This document shows, one piece after another, positions 27,972-48,045 of a stretch of DNA of 64,000 nucleotides; within the stretch, counting starts at the first letter, position 1; each line of letters opens with the position of its first letter. Source of the DNA: a virus (taxonomy: Duplodnaviria > Heunggongvirae > Uroviricota > Caudoviricetes); IMG/VR virus record IMGVR_UViG_3300027710_000009. One strand, 5' to 3'. The position numbers and the translations under genes were made by a program. The notes beneath the pieces are model-generated. The model was not told where the DNA came from. It worked only from the letters and a program-made list of their open reading frames with translations, and searched no databases.

Positions 27972-28700
27972 TTAAGCGTTGGCTAACACAACAGTAGGTA
28001 GTTCTACTACTGATGGGCCGTCTGCGGCTGATGGGTTTCCACCGCTGGTGCCTGCTTCTGCAGATCCAGTAATGGTCCATTTTGCAGTATCACCATCAGG
28101 AACATCAAATCCTGTGCCGCCGTCGGTGTTTTGTACCAATTCAACTTTGTTCTTGTTGATCTTCTTGACCCAGTATGTGCTGCTTTGGCTGTCTGTAGCA
28201 ACAATGGCCATTTCGCCAGCGGCGCTTGGTGTAGCGGCCACTAGCTTGCAAACTGCGGTGCCGTCTTGCGATCTAACTCTAAAACGCTTGCTACCAACTT
28301 GTTTCAAAATGTCGTTGCCAGTGGTGCGGTTTGTGGAACTGATACGCACTTGCGGTGCCAGTGCATTAGCACGAGCAGTTGCAGCCGATACGGAAGTTAA
28401 TACTGCTGTCAAAGTTAGTGTACCTTGTGTGCCTGTGTCTGCAGAGATAGTTGCTGATGTGTAGCCAGAACCAACTGTGCTAATGGACACGTTGCCAATT
28501 ACACCGTTTGCAAAAGCATTGACAGTACCAACTGCTTGTGTACTACCTGCAATCTGCGGTGCAGAAATTGTTAGTGCATCACCTGTTGTGTAGCCAGATG
28601 AATTGTTAGTGCCACCTAATGTGACACTGGAGATACCTTCACCGCCAATGTTGTCGGGGTTTGATTCACCAAAGAATTTTTTATTTAGAGGACGTCCCAT
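27972..28700 (-). CDS. 242-aa virion protein downstream of MCP (candidate head decoration protein)
   Basis: Likely start is MGRPLNKKFFG at 28700, after an AAGGAG RBS, rather than the track start at 28754. Contains I.SV....GSGYT repeats and ILKQVGSKRFRV. Confidence 0.75.
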   Translation of the reverse strand: MGRPLNKKFFGESNPDNIGGEGISSVTLGGTNNSSGYTTGDALTISAPQIAGSTQAVGTVNAFANGVIGNVSISTVGSGYTSATISADTGTQGTLTLTAVLTSVSAATARANALAPQVRISSTNRTTGNDILKQVGSKRFRVRSQDGTAVCKLVAATPSAAGEMAIVATDSQSSTYWVKKINKNKVELVQNTDGGTGFDVPDGDTAKWTITGSAEAGTSGGNPSAADGPSVVELPTVVLANA

Positions 28701-28724
28701 TTGTTTTCTCCTTAATATGATTAG

Positions 28725-28779
28725 CGTTCTAGGCCTACGCGGTGGGTACCGCATAAGTTACTTGAGTGTCAAGTGAACA
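28725..28779 (-). promoter_or_regulatory. Structured 5' leader (putative three-way junction)
   Basis: P1 UGUUC/GAACG, P2 ACUUGA-CAC-UCAAGU, P3 CUUAUGCGGU-ACCC-ACCGCGUAGG. Lies between the late promoter and the RBS. Confidence 0.5.
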
Positions 28780-38191: not shown

Positions 38192-38205
38192 AGTGTGTAT
38201 TTCAA

Positions 38206-38212
38206 TATTTAT
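38206..38212 (-). promoter_or_regulatory. Late promoter box (ATAAATA) for the tape-measure gene
   Basis: 38 nt upstream of the 38167 start, facing the + strand promoter. Confidence 0.55.
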
Positions 38213-38224
38213 GAGGATCAAAAT

Positions 38225-39100
38225 ATGAGCACAGAACCAAACGCAACAGCCAGCGTAAACCCACTGAGTAAATTTTTCCGTACTCCGGCCATTTACTTTT
38301 CGCTGCCATCTGGTGGAAAATGGTGGCCAGAGGGCAGTTTGGACCTGCCCGAATCCAACGAAATTGCAGTTTACCCAATGACCAACAAAGACGAAATTTT
38401 AATTCGTACTCCAGATGCGCTGATCAACGGGCAGGGTGTGGTAGAAGTCATACAAAGTTGCATTCCCAACATCAAAGATGCATGGAAAATGCCAGCTACC
38501 GATGTGGATGCGGCTCTTATTGCCATGCGCATTGCCAGCTACGGACACAAAATGGATTTTTCCAATCAGTGCCCACACTGCAAAGAAGAGCATGATTATG
38601 CTCTAGATCTACGACACATGCTGGAAACTATCACTGCACCAGACTATGAAACCAAACATCTAGACCTAGAAGTGATAAAAATTCGATTTAGACCGCAAAA
38701 GTACTGGGAAGTAAATCACGCTAACAAAACAGCATTTGAAGTGCGCAAGCTACAGATGGCCTTGGAAAACTTGCCGGTTACCGAAGAAGACGAAGAAAAA
38801 ACTCGTGCAGTAACACAACAACTCAAACGTGTTAACGAAATCAATCACAACATCATGGCCAAAAGCACAGAGTACATTGAAATCATTGACTCTGGGGAGA
38901 GGGTTGAAAGTCCTGAGCAGATTGAAGAATTCTACGGACAGATTGGTAGAATAATGTTTGACAAGATTCAAGAAGAAATCACAAACATACAAAAAGAAGG
39001 TTCAGTTAAACCTGTGTCTGTCAACTGCTTGAGTTGCCAAAAGCCCATGGAAATAACCATACTGTTTGACTACGCTAATTTTTTCGTAGTCGGCTCTTGA
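38225..39100 (+). CDS. Baseplate hub assembly protein (T4 gp26-like)
   Basis: LPSGG, YPMTNKDE, D.DAALIAMRIASYG, and CPHC...CLSC zinc motifs. A GAGGA RBS favours ATG 38225. Confidence 0.8.
   Translation: MSTEPNATASVNPLSKFFRTPAIYFSLPSGGKWWPEGSLDLPESNEIAVYPMTNKDEILIRTPDALINGQGVVEVIQSCIPNIKDAWKMPATDVDAALIAMRIASYGHKMDFSNQCPHCKEEHDYALDLRHMLETITAPDYETKHLDLEVIKIRFRPQKYWEVNHANKTAFEVRKLQMALENLPVTEEDEEKTRAVTQQLKRVNEINHNIMAKSTEYIEIIDSGERVESPEQIEEFYGQIGRIMFDKIQEEITNIQKEGSVKPVSVNCLSCQKPMEITILFDYANFFVVGS
39079..39085 (+). other. Putative -1 programmed ribosomal frameshift site T TTT TTC
   Basis: In-frame X XXY YYZ heptamer 4 codons before the stop. The -1 frame opens exactly here (TAA at 39076-39078) and runs to 39315. 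Confidence 0.65.
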
Positions 39101-39315
39101 CTCTCGACGATGATGAAATTGGTCTACTCCTAGAAGAGTACGATCAGCAGTCAAGGGCCATACGAGAAGAGATGTTGCGATTTACCTGGTGGATGCGTGG
39201 AGGATTGAGTTATGATGATGCTTATTCATTAAGCTCAGACGAGAACGATATCATTCGCAAGATCATCAAAGAGAATATGGAAGCAACAAAAACTTCAGGT
39301 ATGCCATTCTTTTAA
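39079..39315 (+). CDS. gp51-like hub assembly domain, probably the frameshift extension of the gp26-like protein
   Basis: -1 frame reads FFRSRLLTLDDDEI...WWMRGGLSYDDAYSLS..E..II.K.IKEN. Only a TTG start, with no clear RBS. Confidence 0.7.
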   Translation, partial: FFRSRLLTLDDDEIGLLLEEYDQQSRAIREEMLRFTWWMRGGLSYDDAYSLSSDENDIIRKIIKENMEATKTSGMPFF

Positions 39316-39742
39316 GATCGCTTGCGCGATCTATTGATTTCGCTATCGCTCATCAATATTGTTTTTTTCTTTACGCTCAAGCGAATTAAGTTTCATCTAG
39401 ATTCTATGGTCACACTTTGCCCTGGCCGGGCAAAGGTTAGCTTCATCTGAGTTCTGATAGCCACATAGCGTTACAACATTACAGAGGCGGTTGTCCGGTA
39501 CCTCGAGTTGCGTCTTTATTACAACGGCGGGCTTGTACACATACGCTAACATACATACAAACCGTGTGCTATCGCTAGCACGTCTTTTTGCCTTTATTAT
39601 CTTCAAACAATCAAACCACAGCAATTTGCGATCTTCGTCCTGTAAAGGATAGTGATTGAGTACTCTGTACAGCGCAGAGAATTCCGTCCCTGTGATCCGA
39701 GATCCAGGTTTAGAGCACACGATGTTGGCCTGTGCTAGCCTT
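39315..39742 (-). ncRNA. Large structured non-coding element (~430 nt), unknown family
   Basis: At least 11 helices, a 5' pseudoknot, GNRA-type loops, and a 15-bp stem with six G-U pairs that forms only on the minus strand. Confidence 0.6.
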
Positions 39743-39751
39743 AACTGTTGA

Positions 39752-40267
39752 TTATTTGCAGAGTTGCTTGACAGCGTCTGCGTTTATTTCCCAAAACGTA
39801 TCATAGTCCATGATGAACCAATGACCGTGTTTGGCGGAGCCATAATTAAAATGCCGTGTAAAAGTAAGGGGAGTTGAGTTGGGCTGTGCTTGTACTGCTA
39901 CAAACATTCCTTTGCGATTGAACTTCATGAACAAAATGTTGAAATCGCCTTCGTCGGCTACATCCATGGTTTGTTCAATCCATTCGTCTAGTTGCTTACA
40001 TGAGCCTTGAAAGAGTTGATGAAATGGAAAGTCTTTGTAACTTTTGCACTCAGCGTTGAACTTCGGAAAACTCTGTCCAGGGATAATGTCCCCTTTGAAG
40101 CTTCGAATCTGTCCTTCGTGCAATACCTCTTTGCGTGAGGCATTTGACCCACCAATATAAGCGCCAGAGTGCGGAACGCGGATAAAGCGTTCTCCGTAGG
40201 TTACTGTAAGGTGATCTGCTACCCTACGTTCCCATGCGTTGCCTTTGGCTTTTTGTGGTGATGTCAT
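39752..40267 (-). CDS. Holliday junction resolvase (PD-(D/E)xK, Hjc-like)
   Basis: KAKGNAWERRVA, P.SGA, GDII and AECK motifs. Confidence 0.8.
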   Translation of the reverse strand: MTSPQKAKGNAWERRVADHLTVTYGERFIRVPHSGAYIGGSNASRKEVLHEGQIRSFKGDIIPGQSFPKFNAECKSYKDFPFHQLFQGSCKQLDEWIEQTMDVADEGDFNILFMKFNRKGMFVAVQAQPNSTPLTFTRHFNYGSAKHGHWFIMDYDTFWEINADAVKQLCK

Positions 40268-40319: not shown

Positions 40320-41336
40320 CTACCATTCGGTAGCATATTCTTTGTTTACAACCTGTTTAGAACACTTGGTTTTGCACTCTTGCCAGCGGAAAGTTTGGAA
40401 TTCTGTAGTCCAAAAAACATCATCTAACACGTCTTTCAACGTGCGCTGAGTGAGGTCAAAGTAGCGACCTCGTTCCTGCCATTCTGCGTTATGTTCGTAT
40501 CTATTTGCCACCCAACAGCAAGGAAACAAGTGACCCTGCGAGTTTATATACACGCCCTTGTTGCCTACTGCACACAGTGGAATCACTGGTTTATCACGAT
40601 ATTCTGCTTGTGTTTTGTGCCACGCGGCAGTGTTTTCTGCATGCACACTCGCTGGCACACGATCGCGCAGTTGTTTAATAGTTCGCTCAAAACGTTGATT
40701 TTGAGCTATGTGTTCAGCTCGAGGTTGCAACACATCTGTTGGCCCGTATATTGGGTATACCTGTGCAAACTTGGTTGAACGTGTGATTTGTAAAAAATCA
40801 AATCCACGACTTGTGGCATGACGTTCAATTTTGTCCAAATGATCTTGATTGAATTCAAATGCTATAGCGGCCCAGGTCATTTGCACTGAACTGTGAGCTC
40901 TAAGCACATCAATACCTTCCATGATACTGTCCCAATCAGAATTAGCCCTGTACTGGTTGTTGCTGATGTTGTCGTAGCCATCAATGCTAAAGTGTACATG
41001 ATCACGATGTGTCAACACATGAGCTAGACCGCGCCACCAGTCGGTGCTTTTGTAACTGCCATTGGTAATAATGACAATTTCAACATCAGCCAGGCTTTTC
41101 AAATAAGCAATGATAGATATCAAGTCATGTGCATAGATAGGGTCACCGTCGTCACCGCAGAATGTAATTTTACGCACTTGCTGTTCGACAAACTGCTGTG
41201 TGAAGTTTCGTTTGAAAAACTCTAGATCTAATTCTGTATTCACAAGTCCGTTGGGAACTTCTTGCCTGGCACAACGTGGGCAATGTAACGTACACTTGCT
41301 GGACACTTCAATGTGCCAATGCCACGTGGCTAGCAT
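40320..41336 (-). CDS. Radical SAM protein with C-terminal SPASM/Twitch domain
   Basis: CTLHCPRC, ITNGS and FSIDG motifs, then PLC...YINSQGHLFPCCW...CKTKC. Confidence 0.9.
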   Translation of the reverse strand: MLATWHWHIEVSSKCTLHCPRCARQEVPNGLVNTELDLEFFKRNFTQQFVEQQVRKITFCGDDGDPIYAHDLISIIAYLKSLADVEIVIITNGSYKSTDWWRGLAHVLTHRDHVHFSIDGYDNISNNQYRANSDWDSIMEGIDVLRAHSSVQMTWAAIAFEFNQDHLDKIERHATSRGFDFLQITRSTKFAQVYPIYGPTDVLQPRAEHIAQNQRFERTIKQLRDRVPASVHAENTAAWHKTQAEYRDKPVIPLCAVGNKGVYINSQGHLFPCCWVANRYEHNAEWQERGRYFDLTQRTLKDVLDDVFWTTEFQTFRWQECKTKCSKQVVNKEYATEW

Positions 41337-42235
41337 AATGCGGTGTCCTCTTGAAACTGACTTTCAAATCTTGTTTGGTCATTTGTGGTTGCACAAAACT
41401 TGGTGCATACAGGGTGTGGATTGTCTTTCCAGCTAGCAATCAGTGTAACAGGATCTGCTACTAATTGCTTGAGTCTTTTGTCCATGCGAAAAACTTCACT
41501 GCCTATAAAACAACAAGGCAGTATCTCGCCTGTGGCGGCCATGTAGATACTTTGTTCGCGCATGGCATGACAGTCCACAGGACCATCTGCTGTTACCGGC
41601 ACAAAGTCCTTGGGTGGAGCAAGAAATTTAATTGGTCGCTCTTGAAAGCGTGAACTGACTTTGGTACGGAAACGCACAAAGCCCATCTTTCTAGCATGCT
41701 CTCTGCAGGTGTCAACATGATGTTGATTGTGTTGGAACACCAGCATGTCCCAGTGTGCTCTACCGCCAGCTGAAATAAATGTTTCTGCATTGAGCATGAT
41801 TCGATGCCACATCACACCTTGGCGATATATGTCATTGGTGCTGGCCATGCCGTCAATGCTGAATACACAGTAGTCTAGCTCACGGCTTAATAGCTTGCCC
41901 ATGTCTAACCAAAACAGTGTGTCACGTAGCGCACCATTGGTATTGAGTCCGATCACAATGTCAGGATTGACTTCACGGAACCACTGAAATATCTGCAGAC
42001 ATTCTCGCGCCGCACATGGATCACCAAAGTTACCACATGCAAATACCTTGCTTAGATTACGTACAAATTGTTCAGGAAATGTACGTTTAATAAGTGCAAG
42101 ACCAACATCGTGATCCGTAGTGTACCCTGACTCGGGATCCATTCTAGCACATTGAGGACAGCTGGCTTGACAGCGAGTGGTTAGCTCAAGATGCAGAACT
42201 TGGATGTCTTCAAACAATGTCGGTGTCTGTACCAT
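41330..42235 (-). CDS. Radical SAM protein with C-terminal SPASM/Twitch domain
   Basis: CQASCPQC, NTNG and FSIDG motifs, then C...YMAATGEILPCCF...CTKFC. Confidence 0.9.
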   Translation of the reverse strand: MVQTPTLFEDIQVLHLELTTRCQASCPQCARMDPESGYTTDHDVGLALIKRTFPEQFVRNLSKVFACGNFGDPCAARECLQIFQWFREVNPDIVIGLNTNGALRDTLFWLDMGKLLSRELDYCVFSIDGMASTNDIYRQGVMWHRIMLNAETFISAGGRAHWDMLVFQHNQHHVDTCREHARKMGFVRFRTKVSSRFQERPIKFLAPPKDFVPVTADGPVDCHAMREQSIYMAATGEILPCCFIGSEVFRMDKRLKQLVADPVTLIASWKDNPHPVCTKFCATTNDQTRFESQFQEDTALC

Positions 42236-43979
42236 AACTTGTGAATCCGTTTTCTTTTGTGACTGTTAGCACGTTGTTTACTCGACTGGTCAGTTCGTCT
42301 TTGTGTGATACCAACCAAACAGATTTATTACGATCACGTGACATCTTCTTGAGAATAGACAAGGCGGCTTCTACACCTGAACTGTCCATACCTGAGTCAA
42401 CCACTTCGTCAATAAACATCAAATTGATAGGCTGATACAAACTTTCCCACACATCACGGAACGCCCAGGACAATGACAGGATCAAACGATTGCGTTCGCC
42501 TCGGCTCAAGTTATCAAAGTCCAGCTCACGTCCTAGCTCTGTGATGTTCACTGTGAGATCGTTTTGGAATATCACAGTGTGCGGTAGTCCAATCTTGTCC
42601 AAGTAGTGACTCAGTCGTTGATTTAGATAAGTTAAATTTTGATCAATGATGCGTTTGCGCACATAACTGTCTTTGCTGGTCAAGAGCTTGAGCAAGAAGT
42701 CTTGATGATCACGCAAACTTACCAAGCGGTTCATTTCATCGTAATCAATTTCTTCTACTGCTTTGTTTTCCATTTCTGTAATTTGTTCAGCATAAGGATC
42801 TGCTTCGTCCTGTTTGGCTGTGATTTGACTCAATATATTGCCCAAGCTCGCACGATGTTCAAATGCATCTGCTTCTTTGTCGTAGAATGTTTCTGGAACT
42901 GGTCCAAGCTCGCCTAGTGCCTGTAGTGCATCAGTATGCTCCATCCACTGAGTATTTGTTGCCAGTGCTTGTAGTGCGGCTTCTTGCAGACTTTTACGTT
43001 TGTCAGCCAACACCTGCTCATGCTTTTCATCATGCATTTCCTGTCCACAAGCATAGCACTTGTGTTCTTCCAGTTGAGCAATTTCTGCTTTGAGCTTGGC
43101 AATGGTCTTGTTTTCTTTGGCTTCGTCAACTTCGCAACGTGCAATATATTTTTGTAAATCAGCACGATCCTTGACCAATTGAGTGTGCCGCACCAGATCT
43201 TGATGTGCTAGCAGTTCGGCTTCGATGTCAATCTTGCCCAGCTCGTCATAGGCTATTGCTAGCTTGTCAAGATCTTCTTGCTTTTTACGTAGCCACAAAG
43301 TTTGTCGTCGACGCAGATTTTCAATTTGATCTTCCATGCGTTTGTTGGCATCACGCACAGCATTGATACGATATTCTTCCTTGGTTATAGATTCTTTGCC
43401 AAGTTTGATTTGTTCTTTGAGATTTTCTGCTTTTTCACTCAGTTGTGTAACACCCAACAGTTGCTCAATCAACACACGCTGATCCGCGGCTCTTAGACTC
43501 AGGAAAGGTTCAGTGTAGGTGTTCAGTGCAACAATATGTTTGAACATTTCATGGCTCATGCCCAACAGTTGTTCAATTGCATGCTGTGTTTCGCGACTGT
43601 CACCTTGGCTTTCGTCTTTGACTTCTTGTTCTTGGTCGCCAATAAAAAACTTCATGATGTTGGGCTTGCGTCCACGTTCAACTCTATAGGTTTGTCCGTT
43701 GTTTTCAAACTCAAGATTGACTATCATGGCTTTGCCATTGGTCTTGTTAATCAAGTTTTCTTTGCGAATACGAGTAAGAGCTTCACCGTACATGGCATAA
43801 CTCAGGGCATTGATAATTGTAGTTTTGCCTGTGCCATTACGTGCGCCAGTATCATCTCCGCCTAGATCCAAGTTTTGTCCTAGTACCAAGGTCAAATCAT
43901 TTCTATTGAAATTCACAGCCTGAGTTACATTACCCACGCTCATGAAGTTTTTAACAGTTAGAGTTTTTATTTTGAGCAT
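42210..43979 (-). CDS. gp46: Recombination endonuclease ATPase subunit (T4 gp46 / Rad50-SbcC)
   Basis: Walker A NGTGKTT, coiled coil with a CYAC zinc hook, signature LSRGE, Walker B FIDEVVDSGMD, and H-loop VSH. Confidence 0.95.
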   Translation of the reverse strand: MLKIKTLTVKNFMSVGNVTQAVNFNRNDLTLVLGQNLDLGGDDTGARNGTGKTTIINALSYAMYGEALTRIRKENLINKTNGKAMIVNLEFENNGQTYRVERGRKPNIMKFFIGDQEQEVKDESQGDSRETQHAIEQLLGMSHEMFKHIVALNTYTEPFLSLRAADQRVLIEQLLGVTQLSEKAENLKEQIKLGKESITKEEYRINAVRDANKRMEDQIENLRRRQTLWLRKKQEDLDKLAIAYDELGKIDIEAELLAHQDLVRHTQLVKDRADLQKYIARCEVDEAKENKTIAKLKAEIAQLEEHKCYACGQEMHDEKHEQVLADKRKSLQEAALQALATNTQWMEHTDALQALGELGPVPETFYDKEADAFEHRASLGNILSQITAKQDEADPYAEQITEMENKAVEEIDYDEMNRLVSLRDHQDFLLKLLTSKDSYVRKRIIDQNLTYLNQRLSHYLDKIGLPHTVIFQNDLTVNITELGRELDFDNLSRGERNRLILSLSWAFRDVWESLYQPINLMFIDEVVDSGMDSSGVEAALSILKKMSRDRNKSVWLVSHKDELTSRVNNVLTVTKENGFTSYGTDTDIV

Positions 43980-44926
43980 TTTTGTGTACAGATTAAATTA
44001 GGTGATTGATTGAAACTTGCCGGATATCTTTTTTGCCACAGGTCACCATTGATTATGTCCTCTAATGTGCTAGTGTAGAGATTTATTTGGTCAAAGTCAA
44101 TAGCCAGCGTGTTCCTAAAATGATAGTTGACCACTTCATAGGTTAGTTTTTGTTGTGTGGCCTTGTGCCACCCCATGAGATAACAGCAGGGCCATACTGT
44201 GCCATCAGCATAGATAGATATCCATCCTTCGCGCTGACTTTCGCATGAAATTTTTCCAGTTGTGGGTTTTATGAAATCTTTTTCAACAAAAGTCACTGTG
44301 GCTGGCACAAGTTCTAGATTGGCAGGCTGTAGGTGTGCCTGCGACTGGTCTTTCAAGTTGAATCTATCTTGCCGCAGTACAAAAAACTTTTCAAAATTCA
44401 GTTGCTCACTCAACTGCTTACAAGACTCTATTTGATGTGCATTGTGTTCAAACAAAATAAACTGCCAATGTGCATGGCCACCACCTTGCACAAATGCCTG
44501 GGCATTGTCAATAATCTTTTGCCAATTGGTATTGGTTCTGTAGATTTCGTGTGTATCTTCAAGTCCGTCAATGCCAAATACCACACTGTGATTGTGTTTG
44601 CTCAATAGTTTGCCCAGTTGTTGCCACCAGCTGGTACTGCGCAAACTGCCATTGGTGTGTATGTTGATCTCAGCGGTGGTATTGCAAACAACCCACTCAA
44701 TGATATTGAAAATATCTGGGTGCATGATGTTGTCACCCGTGGTACCATTAAAATTGATTGTTTTGAGATTTTGCCATACATGCAACGGAACCTGTTTGAC
44801 AACGTGATGCCAGTCCAGCGTGTCATTGGTACGCATGCCCGGGTGTCGCAAACACTGGACACATCCTGCATTGCAGTTGTTTATGGTTTCAACGTCTAAC
44901 ACAACTATGTCGTTAACAGTCAGCAT
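43967..44926 (-). CDS. Radical SAM protein with C-terminal SPASM/Twitch domain
   Basis: CNAGCVQC, HTNGS and FGIDG motifs, then C...IYADGTVWPCCY...CTQKC. Confidence 0.9.
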   Translation of the reverse strand: MLTVNDIVVLDVETINNCNAGCVQCLRHPGMRTNDTLDWHHVVKQVPLHVWQNLKTINFNGTTGDNIMHPDIFNIIEWVVCNTTAEINIHTNGSLRSTSWWQQLGKLLSKHNHSVVFGIDGLEDTHEIYRTNTNWQKIIDNAQAFVQGGGHAHWQFILFEHNAHQIESCKQLSEQLNFEKFFVLRQDRFNLKDQSQAHLQPANLELVPATVTFVEKDFIKPTTGKISCESQREGWISIYADGTVWPCCYLMGWHKATQQKLTYEVVNYHFRNTLAIDFDQINLYTSTLEDIINGDLWQKRYPASFNQSPNLICTQKCSK

Positions 44927-46037
44927 TTAGTCGTTCAACCAGTTCTGGAAAAGACTCTGCAACACTGTTGCCACGACGGAGGTCTAGTTTTTGGCAATAG
45001 TCAAGTATGTCCTGCGCGGCACTGTAATGCGGCGTGTGCAGTTGTGTTTGTATTTGTTTGATTGAAGGATTATCAATGCCGTTGAGTCGACTGTGTATCC
45101 AGGCTCGAGTTTTTACCGGAGCTCGATGCATGTTAAGAATCAATGGATCCTGCAACTTGTTGTAGAACACTTCAAGATCATTTGTTTTGCAAAATTCTTC
45201 TACTTCTGCAAGATAACCCACATTGAATATACTGGTCGTGTGCAAGATCAGCAGTCTAACTTTTTGTAGCTTTTTATATTGTTGAATATTTTTAACCAAA
45301 GTATCCCAACTGGCCGGAAATCTTAAATATTCAAATCTACTACCAATGCCATCCATGCTGATGTTTATATCAACTCGTTTGAAGTGCTGCCAGTATTCCA
45401 ATTGCTCATCAGGCATGCGTGTACCATTGGTGGTGTACAACAAGGTAATGTGTTTGGAATGTCCAGATTCAACCAAGTACTTGAATAAATCAGCTTGTTC
45501 TTGTTCCAACATCATGAACGGTTCACCGCCAATAAATTCTATCATACCAATACCTGCGGCACGGTCTCTCAAACTCTGCCAGACTGGATCAGTTTTTTTC
45601 AGCATGATAGGACGACTGGCTGGATCACCAAACTTTTTGTTTTCGCTAATCCAGCCAGTACTTACATCATCATTACAGGTAACACAGCGAAGATTGCAGT
45701 GATTTCCCAATCTTACATAGTAACGAACAAACTCATCCTGTACAACATCCAATGCTGGCTTGTACTTGTAGTCAAACACTTGACTGTAGAGTTGATTGTC
45801 TCGCAATCGCTTACTGGAATATCCTTGTGATTCTTCCTCCCAGCAATGCACACAATCTTTGACAGGAACTCCGTCTAGTAATTGTTTTTTAAGCGTGGCA
45901 AGTTCAGTACTGTTGGCATATTCATTGATACTTGCAAATCCGTGGGACGAGGCGTAGACACAACAAGGGCTATAACCTTGCCCAAATTGATAGTTTATAG
46001 AAATCCATGGATTAACGCAAAAGGTTTTTTCATTCAT
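44913..46037 (-). CDS. Radical SAM protein with N-terminal Twitch-like cysteine domain
   Basis: FCVNPW...PCC...CVHC precedes CNLRCVTC. Also GGEPF, TTNGT and ISMDG. Confidence 0.9.
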   Translation of the reverse strand: MNEKTFCVNPWISINYQFGQGYSPCCVYASSHGFASINEYANSTELATLKKQLLDGVPVKDCVHCWEEESQGYSSKRLRDNQLYSQVFDYKYKPALDVVQDEFVRYYVRLGNHCNLRCVTCNDDVSTGWISENKKFGDPASRPIMLKKTDPVWQSLRDRAAGIGMIEFIGGEPFMMLEQEQADLFKYLVESGHSKHITLLYTTNGTRMPDEQLEYWQHFKRVDINISMDGIGSRFEYLRFPASWDTLVKNIQQYKKLQKVRLLILHTTSIFNVGYLAEVEEFCKTNDLEVFYNKLQDPLILNMHRAPVKTRAWIHSRLNGIDNPSIKQIQTQLHTPHYSAAQDILDYCQKLDLRRGNSVAESFPELVERLNADC

Positions 46038-47047
46038 AGATGTTTGTAGATATCCAGCAATAGATTTCTATCATAATGCTCACTGGATATTGCGTTTAAC
46101 TGATTTTGCACTATGGTATCAACGCTTTCAAATTTGATTTCACCTTGTGTTCCGTCCACCATTTCTACTTCTTTTTTAGGAATCAAACTGAGTTCTCTCA
46201 ACTGATACGTTTCAATGAAAGTTTCTTTGATAAAGTTTGCTTCTTCGTAGCTGAGATCAATGTCAATGTTCACTCGAGCATGCATTCGAGGTTTGAATAC
46301 CTTTTCTGCATCAGTGACCACACTGCTCAAACTCAGCACACGATAGGTAGGCTGATCTGGCCATGCGTGATACTCCGGCTCTTTGTCCCATTCCAGGATC
46401 ATCATGCCGCGATCTTCGTCACCGTCATCTGCATAGTTGTGCGGAAAACAGTTGCCAATGTATGTGATGTTGTTGGCAGTTTGGCGCTTGTGGAAATGTC
46501 CAGTGAATACTTTTTCAAAGCCCACAAAGTCTTCTCTACGAGCTTCGCCCACATCGGGCATTTGAATCATGGCGTTCATAAAGTAGCCTGGTAATTCAAA
46601 GTGTCCAAAGCAGTACTTGCCTTTTTTCTTCAGAAGCTTTTTGTGATCATCACCCACTAGCCACGGAGCAATGGTCACATCTCCTTGGCTGAACCAGTCA
46701 TTGCAAATGTGAATGTTAGGAAGATGTCGAGCCCATTCTACACTCTGCACATCACGTTTGTCTCTGTAGTACAAGTCATGATTGCCAGGGATAAAATACA
46801 CAGCATCAAAATTGTCATTCATATGCTCCAGTGCTTTGAGACTGTAGTTCAAAGTCAGAATGTTCAACGCAGATCTGTTGTTGTGCCAGTCGCCAAGAAA
46901 CAAGCAGGTTTCACAACCTTCTTCTTTGGCTTTGGCGGTGGCCCATTTGACAAACGCCAAACAGTCTTCGTTGTGCGTGATACTGTTGGATTTCAATCCA
47001 AAATGGATATCAGTCCATACTGCGGCTTTTTTGAATAGATTAGGCAT
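46034..47047 (-). CDS. gp47: Recombination endonuclease nuclease subunit (T4 gp47 / Mre11-SbcD)
   Basis: Metallophosphoesterase motifs DIHFG, LGDW, GNHD, GHFE and GHFH. Confidence 0.95.
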   Translation of the reverse strand: MPNLFKKAAVWTDIHFGLKSNSITHNEDCLAFVKWATAKAKEEGCETCLFLGDWHNNRSALNILTLNYSLKALEHMNDNFDAVYFIPGNHDLYYRDKRDVQSVEWARHLPNIHICNDWFSQGDVTIAPWLVGDDHKKLLKKKGKYCFGHFELPGYFMNAMIQMPDVGEARREDFVGFEKVFTGHFHKRQTANNITYIGNCFPHNYADDGDEDRGMMILEWDKEPEYHAWPDQPTYRVLSLSSVVTDAEKVFKPRMHARVNIDIDLSYEEANFIKETFIETYQLRELSLIPKKEVEMVDGTQGEIKFESVDTIVQNQLNAISSEHYDRNLLLDIYKHL

Positions 47048-47055
47048 AGTAACTT

Positions 47056-47084
47056 ATTATAGACACAATTCGTTTGAAATGCAA
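47056..47084 (-). promoter_or_regulatory. Sigma70-type promoter TTGCAT-17bp-TATAAT (leaderless gp47 mRNA)
   Basis: The -10 ends 8 nt before the gp47 ATG and there is no Shine-Dalgarno. Confidence 0.75.
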
Positions 47085-47097
47085 CTAAGTTGGCAAT

Positions 47098-47985
47098 CTA
47101 CTCTTCGTGACCGCCGCCTCCACTGCTGGCCATTTGACGTGTGTAACTTGGGTTCAAGTTGTTCATTTGCAAGATGTCGTCCCTTAGATTCTGGTTGCGT
47201 TTTTCAATGTTAAGCACACGAGTGAATGAGTTGGTAATAGCTGCCGTGTAATAAGCAAATGGATTTTGACTCTTGCTTTCATCAAACTGCAAACCAATCT
47301 GACTCAACTGTAGCAGAGCTTGTGAGCGCATTTCATCATTGTATGTGTAGCCACGCCAGTTAGATCTTGTGGCATAGCGTTCACACAGTTTCATAAACAT
47401 GTGAGCCAGCTTGTTGGTCATTGCTCCGTGGTCTCTAGAATAGCATCCTGTGTCTGGATCGCCTTTCCAATGACTGATGCCCACTACCACTTGCAACAGG
47501 TTGTCTTCTGTGTCACGAGCAAGTTTTATGTGCTTGAACGGCGGAAAATTAACCTTGACAAATTTGGTAGGCTTGGCCGGCTCGTCAGCATCGTACTCGG
47601 TGTCTGCGGAGTCTTCATCTTCTTCAATCACAGGTTCAGCTTTGCCACGTTTTTTGCTGACTTTTACAATTTCTTGTGTGGGCACATGTTCCCATGTCAT
47701 GACACGAAACACTACTTCGTCTTCGGGAATCTTGGTATGCTTGATCAAAAAATCTTCTAGTTTGGCCTTGGTTCCGCCCAGCAAGGCTTCTTCTTGGGCA
47801 ATTTTAGCCAGGCGCTCGGCACGATTTTTCTTTGCTTCGGTTATGTCTTTTTTAGTAATTTTTCGCCCGTCAGTGATGATCATGTCGTAATCAGCATCCA
47901 GTGGGTTTTTATACCAGCAGTAGGTGTTCTTACTCTTGTGTATCTCTTTCAAGATATCTTTATTGTTGAGATAATTGTGCTTCAT
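47098..47985 (-). CDS. gp55: Late-transcription sigma factor (T4 gp55-like)
   Basis: NYLNNKD N-terminus and NWRGYTYNDEM...FDESKSQNPFAYYT...NSF.R.LNIEKRNQ. Likely start is MKHNY at 47985, after AGGA. Confidence 0.85.
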   Translation of the reverse strand: MKHNYLNNKDILKEIHKSKNTYCWYKNPLDADYDMIITDGRKITKKDITEAKKNRAERLAKIAQEEALLGGTKAKLEDFLIKHTKIPEDEVVFRVMTWEHVPTQEIVKVSKKRGKAEPVIEEDEDSADTEYDADEPAKPTKFVKVNFPPFKHIKLARDTEDNLLQVVVGISHWKGDPDTGCYSRDHGAMTNKLAHMFMKLCERYATRSNWRGYTYNDEMRSQALLQLSQIGLQFDESKSQNPFAYYTAAITNSFTRVLNIEKRNQNLRDDILQMNNLNPSYTRQMASSGGGGHEE

Positions 47986-48016
47986 GTTTAGCAGTATCCT
48001 TATAAAACTACCACTT

Positions 48017-48045
48017 ATTTTAGCAGGTAAATAGTACAAAAGCAA
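48017..48045 (-). promoter_or_regulatory. Sigma70-type promoter TTGCTT-17bp-TAAAAT (extended -10 TG) for gp55
   Basis: 17-bp spacer ending in TGC, 31 nt upstream of ATG 47985. Confidence 0.7.
48027..48033 (+). promoter_or_regulatory. Late promoter box (GTAAATA) for the baseplate operon
   Basis: 24 nt upstream of 48058, inside the spacer of the gp55 promoter. Confidence 0.65.

Follow-up and report, generated by a model that had tools for sequence, protein, structure and literature searches.

A Polynucleobacter-1 RNA with unreported 3′ architecture in a T4-like jumbo phage, a candidate template-anchored primer

What is encoded in the structured stretch that closes a gp55-to-nuclease gene run in a jumbo phage, and what might it do there? 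The window, that is, the whole 64,000-nucleotide stretch of viral DNA analyzed here (IMG/VR record IMGVR_UViG_3300027710_000009), is part of a T4-like jumbo phage, judged from the major head protein, late sigma factor and baseplate hub that it encodes. Between a resolvase-like gene with its stop at 39752 and a convergent 72-aa gene, positions 39315 to 39742 (minus strand) form a non-coding structured element. Its 5′ start lies about 10 nt past the nuclease stop codon, and its 3′ limit is the stop of the convergent gene (Table 1). The gene run closed by the element has the order gp55-gp47-gp46-radical SAM genes-nuclease; the names gp46 and gp47 are our assignments, made from the translations and the syntenic annotation in PA5oct. 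Four radical-SAM-like genes are interleaved with gp46/gp47 at 40320-46037 (minus strand), a slot with variable genes in relatives. In the window, no radical SAM gene directly precedes the RNA, and the gene that does differs from phage to phage. The first-pass annotation had called the element the only long gene-free stretch, which was not established, as other gaps of 300 to 440 nt without ORFs of at least 130 aa exist (small genes aside). Contigs assembled from RNA runs, which carry no strand, ends or level, cover the element and its flanking genes in pieces at depths of 2 to 22, and two of them (X2 and X5) are continuous from the resolvase into the RNA. On the plus strand, a TTTTTTC run occurs at 39079-39085, close to the end of the baseplate-hub-like gene and ahead of the overlapping 72-aa gene.

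Table 1. Coordinates of the element's parts and of its neighbors in the window
Feature	Position	Strand	Remarks
Gene run leading into the RNA	42210-48045	-	gp55-like late sigma factor (47098-48045), then gp47- and gp46-like genes
PD-(D/E)XK nuclease, PF24608, phrog_244 RusA-like resolvase	39752-40267	-	Last gene before the RNA; SegE-type GIY-YIG instead in other phages
5′ domain, RF01718	39605-39740	-	Pseudoknot 39715-39740; hairpins 39689-39708 and 39663-39679; multiloop 39609-39657
GNRA-capped hairpin	39566-39581	-	Covariation model
Long 12-bp stem, loop forming PK1	39531-39562	-	Covariation model
Long-range pseudoknot PK1	39543-39548 with 39466-39471	-	Double changes in 6/6 pairs; 97.5% paired
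H-type pseudoknot PK2	39521-39525 with 39490-39494; 39501-39504 with 39484-39487	-	Most conserved core (39484-39525)
Repeat 1: TGRC, ~10 nt, A-CTC, box 1 AGATGAA	39440-39464	-	Box 1 at 39442-39448; +8/+9 at 39441-39440
Hairpin between boxes	39415-39435	-	96% paired
Repeat 2: TGRC, ~10 nt, A-TCT, box 2 AGATGAA	39390-39413	-	Box 2 at 39392-39398, 50 nt from box 1
Inverted small hairpin (39374-39385) and A-rich tract	39358-39385		Candidate unwinding element
Zipper hairpin: stem, tandem GA, 2 bp, GNNA/GNA loop	39333-39357	-	Sole copy in the 64-kb window
Perfect terminal hairpin	39315-39332	-	In relatives, GNA triloops 54/74, C-G closed 67/74
Baseplate-hub-like gene and 72-aa gene, convergent	38195-39315	+	Downstream boundary of the element in most relatives

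The 5′ 136 nt of the element (39605-39740) matched the full Rfam model RF01718, Polynucleobacter-1 (model positions 1-141), with 120.5 bits against a gathering cutoff of 37 (E = 1e-25). Weinberg et al. (2010; PMC2864571) describe this motif as a probable RNA, probably cis-regulatory, from Burkholderiales and fresh water. The Rfam entry covers 141 positions only, compared with an RNA of about 350 nt here (39390-39740, minus strand) that has three pseudoknots backed by covariation. The alignment in the 2010 supplement comprises 16 sequences, many of about 280 to 300 nt, that extend to just beyond PK1 (~39463 in the window) and hold the long stem, the core and PK1; its downstream stems and PK1 are present in the window copy. 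Because that alignment reached just beyond PK1, about two-thirds of the element was already in print, and the claim that it is undescribed fails for the 5′ ~280 nt, given this alignment and the RF01718 match. Neither the twin boxes with the hairpin between them nor the DNA hairpins are in the 2010 alignment, and its core is drawn differently, with PK2 missing. What is new relative to it is the 3′-most ~75 nt of the RNA, together with the DNA tail. A literature search on the motif name found nothing beyond the 2010 paper and no function assigned since.

Rfam gave no match to GOLLD, ROOL, MISL or HEARO, against which a comparison had been proposed. The large ornate RNAs (these four and IMES) resemble the element in size class and multipseudoknot fold, but they have no Rfam match here, and in the window the element adjoins no tRNAs and has no HNH/IscB neighbor. 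As had been noted at first pass, there is no tRNA or tmRNA (ARAGORN and Rfam), and RNase P and intron families gave nothing at the gathering score or at E ≤ 5. The element is a member of a described RNA family, with a 3′ architecture not reported before, and the mechanism set out below, though testable, is a candidate only.

Relatives were collected as 80 loci via the nuclease and 120 via an RNA core pattern, the latter from about 970 IMG/VR stretches; 116 of the 120 passed the HMM. Of 124 distinct copies retained, 35 have the Rfam-type 5′ domain (class A), 17 are unassigned, and 72 carry a second 5′ domain that is invisible to Rfam. Two more 5′ types occur among the nuclease loci, and Rfam detects none of the types outside class A. 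Polynucleobacter-1 is here mainly an element of jumbo phages (~970 IMG/VR stretches), with a single copy per record. A blastn search of the element against named phages and plasmids gave no match, a scan of bacterial genomes with the RNA pattern yielded 120 loci of which none passed the HMM (chance matches dominate), and family- and genus-level genome searches added no copies. Two other RNA types of 400 to 600 nt occupy the same slot downstream of the nuclease (L052-L063 and L064-L079); they have no Rfam match, have twin boxes of their own (ACATGA and GGCAA) and share the zipper. The RNA is inverted relative to its usual neighbors in L203 and L207, so that its orientation toward the baseplate genes is not fixed. 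Many copies (L210, L259, L262, L314) have short AGGCA repeats, up to four, immediately ahead of the RNA 5′ end, a possible processing or protein-binding signal.

Among 27 class-A homologs, the 75 pairs of 14 helices were 87% paired, and 53 pairs had double changes. None of 500 shuffles reached this model, and slid controls were 38 to 45% paired. The part shared by class B has the same fold, with double changes in 24 of 43 pairs. These results bear out the first-pass view of a structured non-coding element on the minus strand and support a large conserved phage ncRNA on the resolvase strand. The 107-aa ORF over the element is spurious: a frame of at least 100 codons is open in 1 of 35 class-A sequences, namely, the window itself. 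Folding energy gave no such support; the z-scores of -1.88 (minus strand), -1.20 (plus strand) and -0.77 (39390-39742) were not significant. Weak values are to be expected where pseudoknots lie outside the energy model; the structural case rests on covariation.

Much of the helix-by-helix reading held under covariation in class A, including the hairpins at 39689-39708, 39663-39679, 39608-39658, 39566-39581, 39531-39562 and 39415-39435. In the 5′ pseudoknot, GCACA/UGUGC showed double changes in five of five pairs, and the GGC/GCC stem was 83% paired with one covarying pair. The local GUUGU/GCAAC helix did not survive: it was 78% paired and, when tested jointly with CGG/CCG, no better than shuffles. 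The covarying partner of GUUGU is ACAAC at 39490-39494 (98.5% paired), so that PK2, whose core contains invariant unpaired residues, replaces it. PK1 and the twin boxes had been missed. The 5′ domain is swapped for unrelated 5′ domains in the other classes of the family. The hairpin between the boxes is predicted to place box 1 beside box 2.

The box 6-mers were identical to each other in 94 of 99 parsed loci, while their sequence varied, with at least 10 types across phages and islands. Agreement per position from +1 to +7 was 0.94 to 0.99, compared with 0.52 to 0.88 expected at variable positions. The spacing between boxes was 47 to 65 nt, changed with the hairpin and was not helically phased. 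A complement of the box was found in the upstream RNA in 1 of 99 loci, compared with 15 of 99 for the control, indicating that the common partner of both boxes lies outside the RNA. The remaining 25 of the 124 loci could not be parsed for boxes, and two mis-parsed loci (L016 and L309) were excluded from the +8/+9 and tree counts. The trimers just 5′ of the boxes, CTC versus TCT, are mostly mismatched in the favored direction described below; their constancy is partly built in because they belonged to the parsing rule.

The mismatches between the boxes were one-directional. Across all IMG/VR, 14 stretches, representing seven lineages at 80 to 90% identity, combined a G in box 1 and an A in box 2 at +1, and the reverse gave one chance match in coding DNA and no real case. 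This 7:0 bias has a P of ~0.016 under equal odds; an island copy (L439) adds an eighth G/A case. Wobble-compatible mismatches had the same direction by 61:1 at +8 and 18:3 at +9 (n = 97). G-T and U-G wobbles of this kind are expected if box 1, as RNA, anneals to the template strand at box 2 over ~9 bp. With RNA energy parameters as a proxy, 73 of 97 loci favored the proposed direction and 22 the opposite. No intermediates were found at +2 to +6 (n = 97), and a G/A intermediate at +5 had no match in IMG/VR, although wobble tolerance is expected there. Apparent joint switches of both boxes on the tree numbered 23 to 25 at +1 and 17 at +5. They may be swaps of the whole 3′ module by recombination, and the count of independent double changes is thus overestimated.

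From this pattern, box 2 would be an anchoring site on the template strand, and we consider it fairly probable that the RNA anchors to its own template, whatever the purpose. The remaining confidence is spread over a protein-bound regulatory RNA, a ribozyme and a nuclease partner. Antiparallel pairing of box 1 with box 2, a C/D box or k-turn, a tmRNA tag and a hammerhead were rejected by eye, as the variant boxes or motifs do not fit. An ACUC/GAGU pairing drawn by RNAalifold in class B, a possible cause of CTC/TCT, was also rejected; it has no double changes, and GAG is missing in 15 class-A loci.

Past box 2, an AT-rich tract follows in the relatives (mean ~73% A+T, median 32 nt), and the zipper hairpin was found in 92 of 99. 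Zipper loops (n = 92) were GNYA in 32, GNRA in 23 and GNA or ANA triloops in 26. Loops within the RNA body have the reverse preference, with 32 GNRA, 6 GNYA and 4 GNA. Phage records G001 and G003 have a zipper on each strand at the end of the RNA. The two terminal hairpins of the first-pass annotation look like hairpins of DNA rather than RNA. Mini-hairpins of the types GCGNNAGC/GCGNAGC are far more stable in DNA than in RNA and occur at the G4/St-1/alpha3 priming sites, RSF1010 ssiA and N4 promoters, according to PMC13037366. What these systems share with the tail is hairpins of the GCGNNAGC/GCGNAGC type on one strand; compared with the published examples, those here have tandem GA pairs and an outer stem in addition, and they follow an RNA gene in a double-stranded jumbo phage. 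The tail past box 2 is probably DNA, not RNA, and the zipper would be a single-stranded DNA mini-hairpin on the non-template strand. The tail hairpins lie on the strand that an R-loop would displace.

The RNA also occurs outside phages. RF01718 scored above its cutoff in 3 of 151 sampled Burkholderiales genomes, always in small mobile-looking contexts; DUF6641 is divergent upstream in two, a tyrosine recombinase lies downstream in two, and tRNA-Arg is near one. DUF6641 was not found in the five phage records, and the literature gave no match for it either. Among 48 distinct metagenomic DUF6641 loci, 46 have TAAATA at a fixed place before the RNA slot. As read from the sequence, this hexamer is the late promoter of these phages: in the window, 17 of 25 TAAATA occurrences are no more than 40 nt from an ORF start, against 0.3 expected, and the numbers are 61 of 203 in G005 and 58 of 308 in G003. 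The phage's own RNA copy has no TAAATA promoter, the hexamer being absent from the element's strand between 39700 and 48200. Class-A-like RNAs occur in 12 of the 48 DUF6641 loci, nearly all with twin boxes, and in 13 of 15 class-A-like island or genome RNAs, the boxes are identical or G/A. The island copies also depart from the phage pattern: class E, the commonest island RNA type, has the zipper but no identical boxes, the zipper is missing in 19 of 44 island loci of sufficient sequence, and copy L396 has two non-wobble box mismatches.

Recurrent island genes encode integrases and, in 11 loci each, a clamp-loader-like ATPase and a DnaQ-like exonuclease. Among 20 recurrent island proteins scanned (6-kb flanks), no Rep/initiator, primase or helicase family was found, and no capsid or terminase family was found among the recurrent island genes scanned. 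Integrase and an apparently helper-responsive promoter, the pair by which a satellite was to be recognized, occur together in the island copies. The islands likely carry the module to exploit these phages. One ~10-kb island family (L378-L457, e.g., L388, L419, L423 and L452) with DUF6641, two tyrosine recombinases, the clamp-loader-like ATPase, the DnaQ-like exonuclease and the fixed late promoter is apparently undescribed, and its members are candidate satellites or defense islands of jumbo phages. The class E RNA and a repeat-rich type share the slot behind TAAATA (L378, ~400 to 760 nt upstream of DUF6641; L412, L428, L441 and L442); the elements of L378, L404 and L412 had no Rfam match at E ≤ 0.5. 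In L374 (16262-19663) and L375 (256-4426), genes for an SNF2/Mrr helicase, an EH-signature protein, MotB/OmpA and membrane proteins adjoin the island RNA; from the MotB/OmpA, EH-signature and SNF2 domains, we take this set to be Zorya-like defense.

The co-changing boxes and the DNA-type hairpins together suggest that the RNA re-pairs with its own gene to start DNA copying. In the proposed sequence of events, the RNA would be made as the 3′ end of the gp55-gp47-gp46-nuclease transcript, with no late promoter. Once the polymerase had passed box 2, the hairpin would bring the nascent box 1 beside the template strand of box 2, and a hybrid of ~9 bp (+1 to +9), held by the pseudoknotted body, would form. 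It would nucleate a persistent R-loop extending into the AT-rich tract. The displaced non-template strand could then fold into C-GNA-G and tandem-GA mini-hairpins for the loading of primase or helicase, and the RNA 3′ end would prime the phage polymerase. Integrase islands in which no initiator is recognized would fire the module from TAAATA only when a phage supplies the late sigma factor and replisome.

Other observations bear on this reading to different degrees. In the window and in records G003 and G005, a divergent coding-strand switch is found 5 to 9 kb away from the element, which is weak support because synteny is also reflected in it. GC and AT skew follow the coding strand and show no independent replication switch, and G005 has no two-arm layout. 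A 9-bp hybrid without protein help would be marginal. Profile PF00075 found no RNase HI in any of the five phage records; a host enzyme is possible. No mapping of origins was found in the literature for this jumbo-phage group. Among the functional guesses of the first-pass annotation, an origin-priming RNA fits best, and we rate the chance that the element is a ColE1/T4-like R-loop primer at a phage replication origin, borrowed by satellites, as about even. If so, the orphan Polynucleobacter-1 RNA gains a function, a structured primer of ColE1 type is combined with a T4-type replisome, and a kind of satellite is defined whose replication needs no self-encoded initiator. A fuller proposal, that replication in a large T4-like jumbo-phage clade begins with a self-anchoring pseudoknotted primer RNA with a 9-bp twin-box hybrid and that new initiator-less satellites use the same RNA origin under a late promoter with a clamp-loader-like subunit, is tentative and, taken whole, rather doubtful.

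In ColE1, anchoring occurs by pairing of an upstream run of the RNA with a downstream run of the template, and RNA-primed origins of this type depend on primer trimming by RNase H and are controlled by the antisense RNA I. In PMC5043065, ColE1 RNA II is described as a folded ncRNA of several hundred nucleotides; it stays hybridized to the template from which it was made, and helicase is then loaded on the displaced strand. The proposed likeness is one of layout (folded transcript, template anchor, displaced strand). In contrast to the G runs of ColE1, mixed-sequence boxes of 7 to 9 nt lie 50 nt apart here; the five phage records have no RNase HI gene, no counterpart of the antisense RNA I is known, and the RNA appears to be an mRNA tail. 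T4 oriE, oriF and oriG lie near coding-strand switches, and oriF and oriG combine a promoter, an AT-rich element and an R-loop (PMC3016281). Like oriF/oriG, the element has a T4-type replisome context and nearby strand switches, and its transcript would likewise run into a downstream AT-rich element. The T4 origins, according to that source, require ~100 bp and have no conserved folded RNA or common motifs, whereas the element has a 350-nt fold, twin boxes and DNA hairpins.

The twin boxes might instead both be bound by a single phage or host protein (for example, RNA polymerase, gp55/gp33 or some dimeric regulator), with the RNA a scaffold or decoy that times late transcription and the island copy an anti-phage decoy. 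This would suit an RNA that terminates the gp55 gene run, bipartite repeats in which TGRC, ~10 nt and the box span about one DNA turn, the lack of intermediates at +2 to +6, and islands with defense cargo (the Zorya-like set) and a clamp-loader-like subunit. However, at least 10 box sequences in matched pairs would need repeated co-evolution of the protein, mismatches at +1, +8 and +9 (G/A and T/C) run in one direction, in keeping with base pairing, the spacing shows no helical phasing, and the DNA-type hairpins are left unexplained. Protein sites are therefore an unlikely explanation, though one to be taken seriously. Somewhat less probable still is an R-loop that forms but serves sliding-clamp entry for late transcription, a gp46/47-nuclease recombination hotspot or the start of packaging. 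The pairing evidence is equal to that of the origin reading, the neighbors (gp55, gp46/47 and a structure-type nuclease that has one of two unrelated folds) would be apt, and the islands encode a clamp-loader-like protein and use the late promoter. On the other hand, the RNA lacks a late promoter in the phage, other genes often stand between it and the nuclease, and the published mini-hairpin precedents (PMC13037366) are priming and promoter sites.

A ribozyme, one of the earlier guesses, is very improbable. The double-pseudoknot core could act as a ribozyme or in RNA processing, cutting or maturing the operon transcript at its 3′ end, with the tail as its terminator, and the invariant unpaired PK2 residues, the nested pseudoknots, the operon-end position and the zipper, read on the plus strand and followed by a T-run, would agree with this. 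No ribozyme family matched: there was no Rfam ribozyme at E ≤ 5, nor one in the other classes at E ≤ 0.5, and the co-changing direct repeats and GNA triloops would be left without a reason.

In the window and in many relatives, ~10 nt separate the nuclease stop codon from the start of the RNA, and the other common neighbor is also a nuclease, which could suggest a guide or scaffold for the adjacent PD-(D/E)XK enzyme in the manner of omega-RNA or HEARO. In the RNA-defined loci, the upstream gene is a SegE-type GIY-YIG in 38 and the resolvase in only 3. The two nucleases have unrelated folds and are mutually exclusive: GIY-YIG was found in none of the 80 resolvase loci, G005 has only GIY-YIG, and G001 to G004 have only PDDEXK. 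Nuclease and RNA often have unrelated genes between them, and neither nuclease adjoins the island copies. A reverse transcriptase (PF00078) was found in none of five phage records, one of them complete, at profile level, which a very divergent enzyme could escape. Since the nuclease is replaceable and no reverse transcriptase was found, the guide and retron readings are weak, and with genes intervening, islands lacking either nuclease, a single-copy element without a variable guide segment and hence none of the pairing of one fixed nuclease family with a variable guide, the guide for an adjoining nuclease suggested at first pass is the least credible of the explanations.

The resolvases of the cultured relatives PA5oct, SCTP-2 and Phosso are 40 to 47% identical to that of the window, and the RNA core was not found in these three phages with HMMs and Rfam. 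Hairpin-rich syntenic gaps are present in Sinorhizobium phage Phosso (L460, 2486-3501) and PA5oct (L458, 1978-3492), which are possible distant homologs; PA5oct has four published ncRNAs, all of them outside the syntenic gap. The Phosso gap, of ~1 kb, has one zipper match and an adjoining RNase HI gene. Elsewhere in the window, a copy of the Rfam freshwater-2 RNA (RF02980, 60 bits) at 28698-28775 (minus strand) has a TAAATA late promoter (28788) on one side and, on the other, the start codon of the gene following the major capsid gene, and it resembles a late-gene translational operator.
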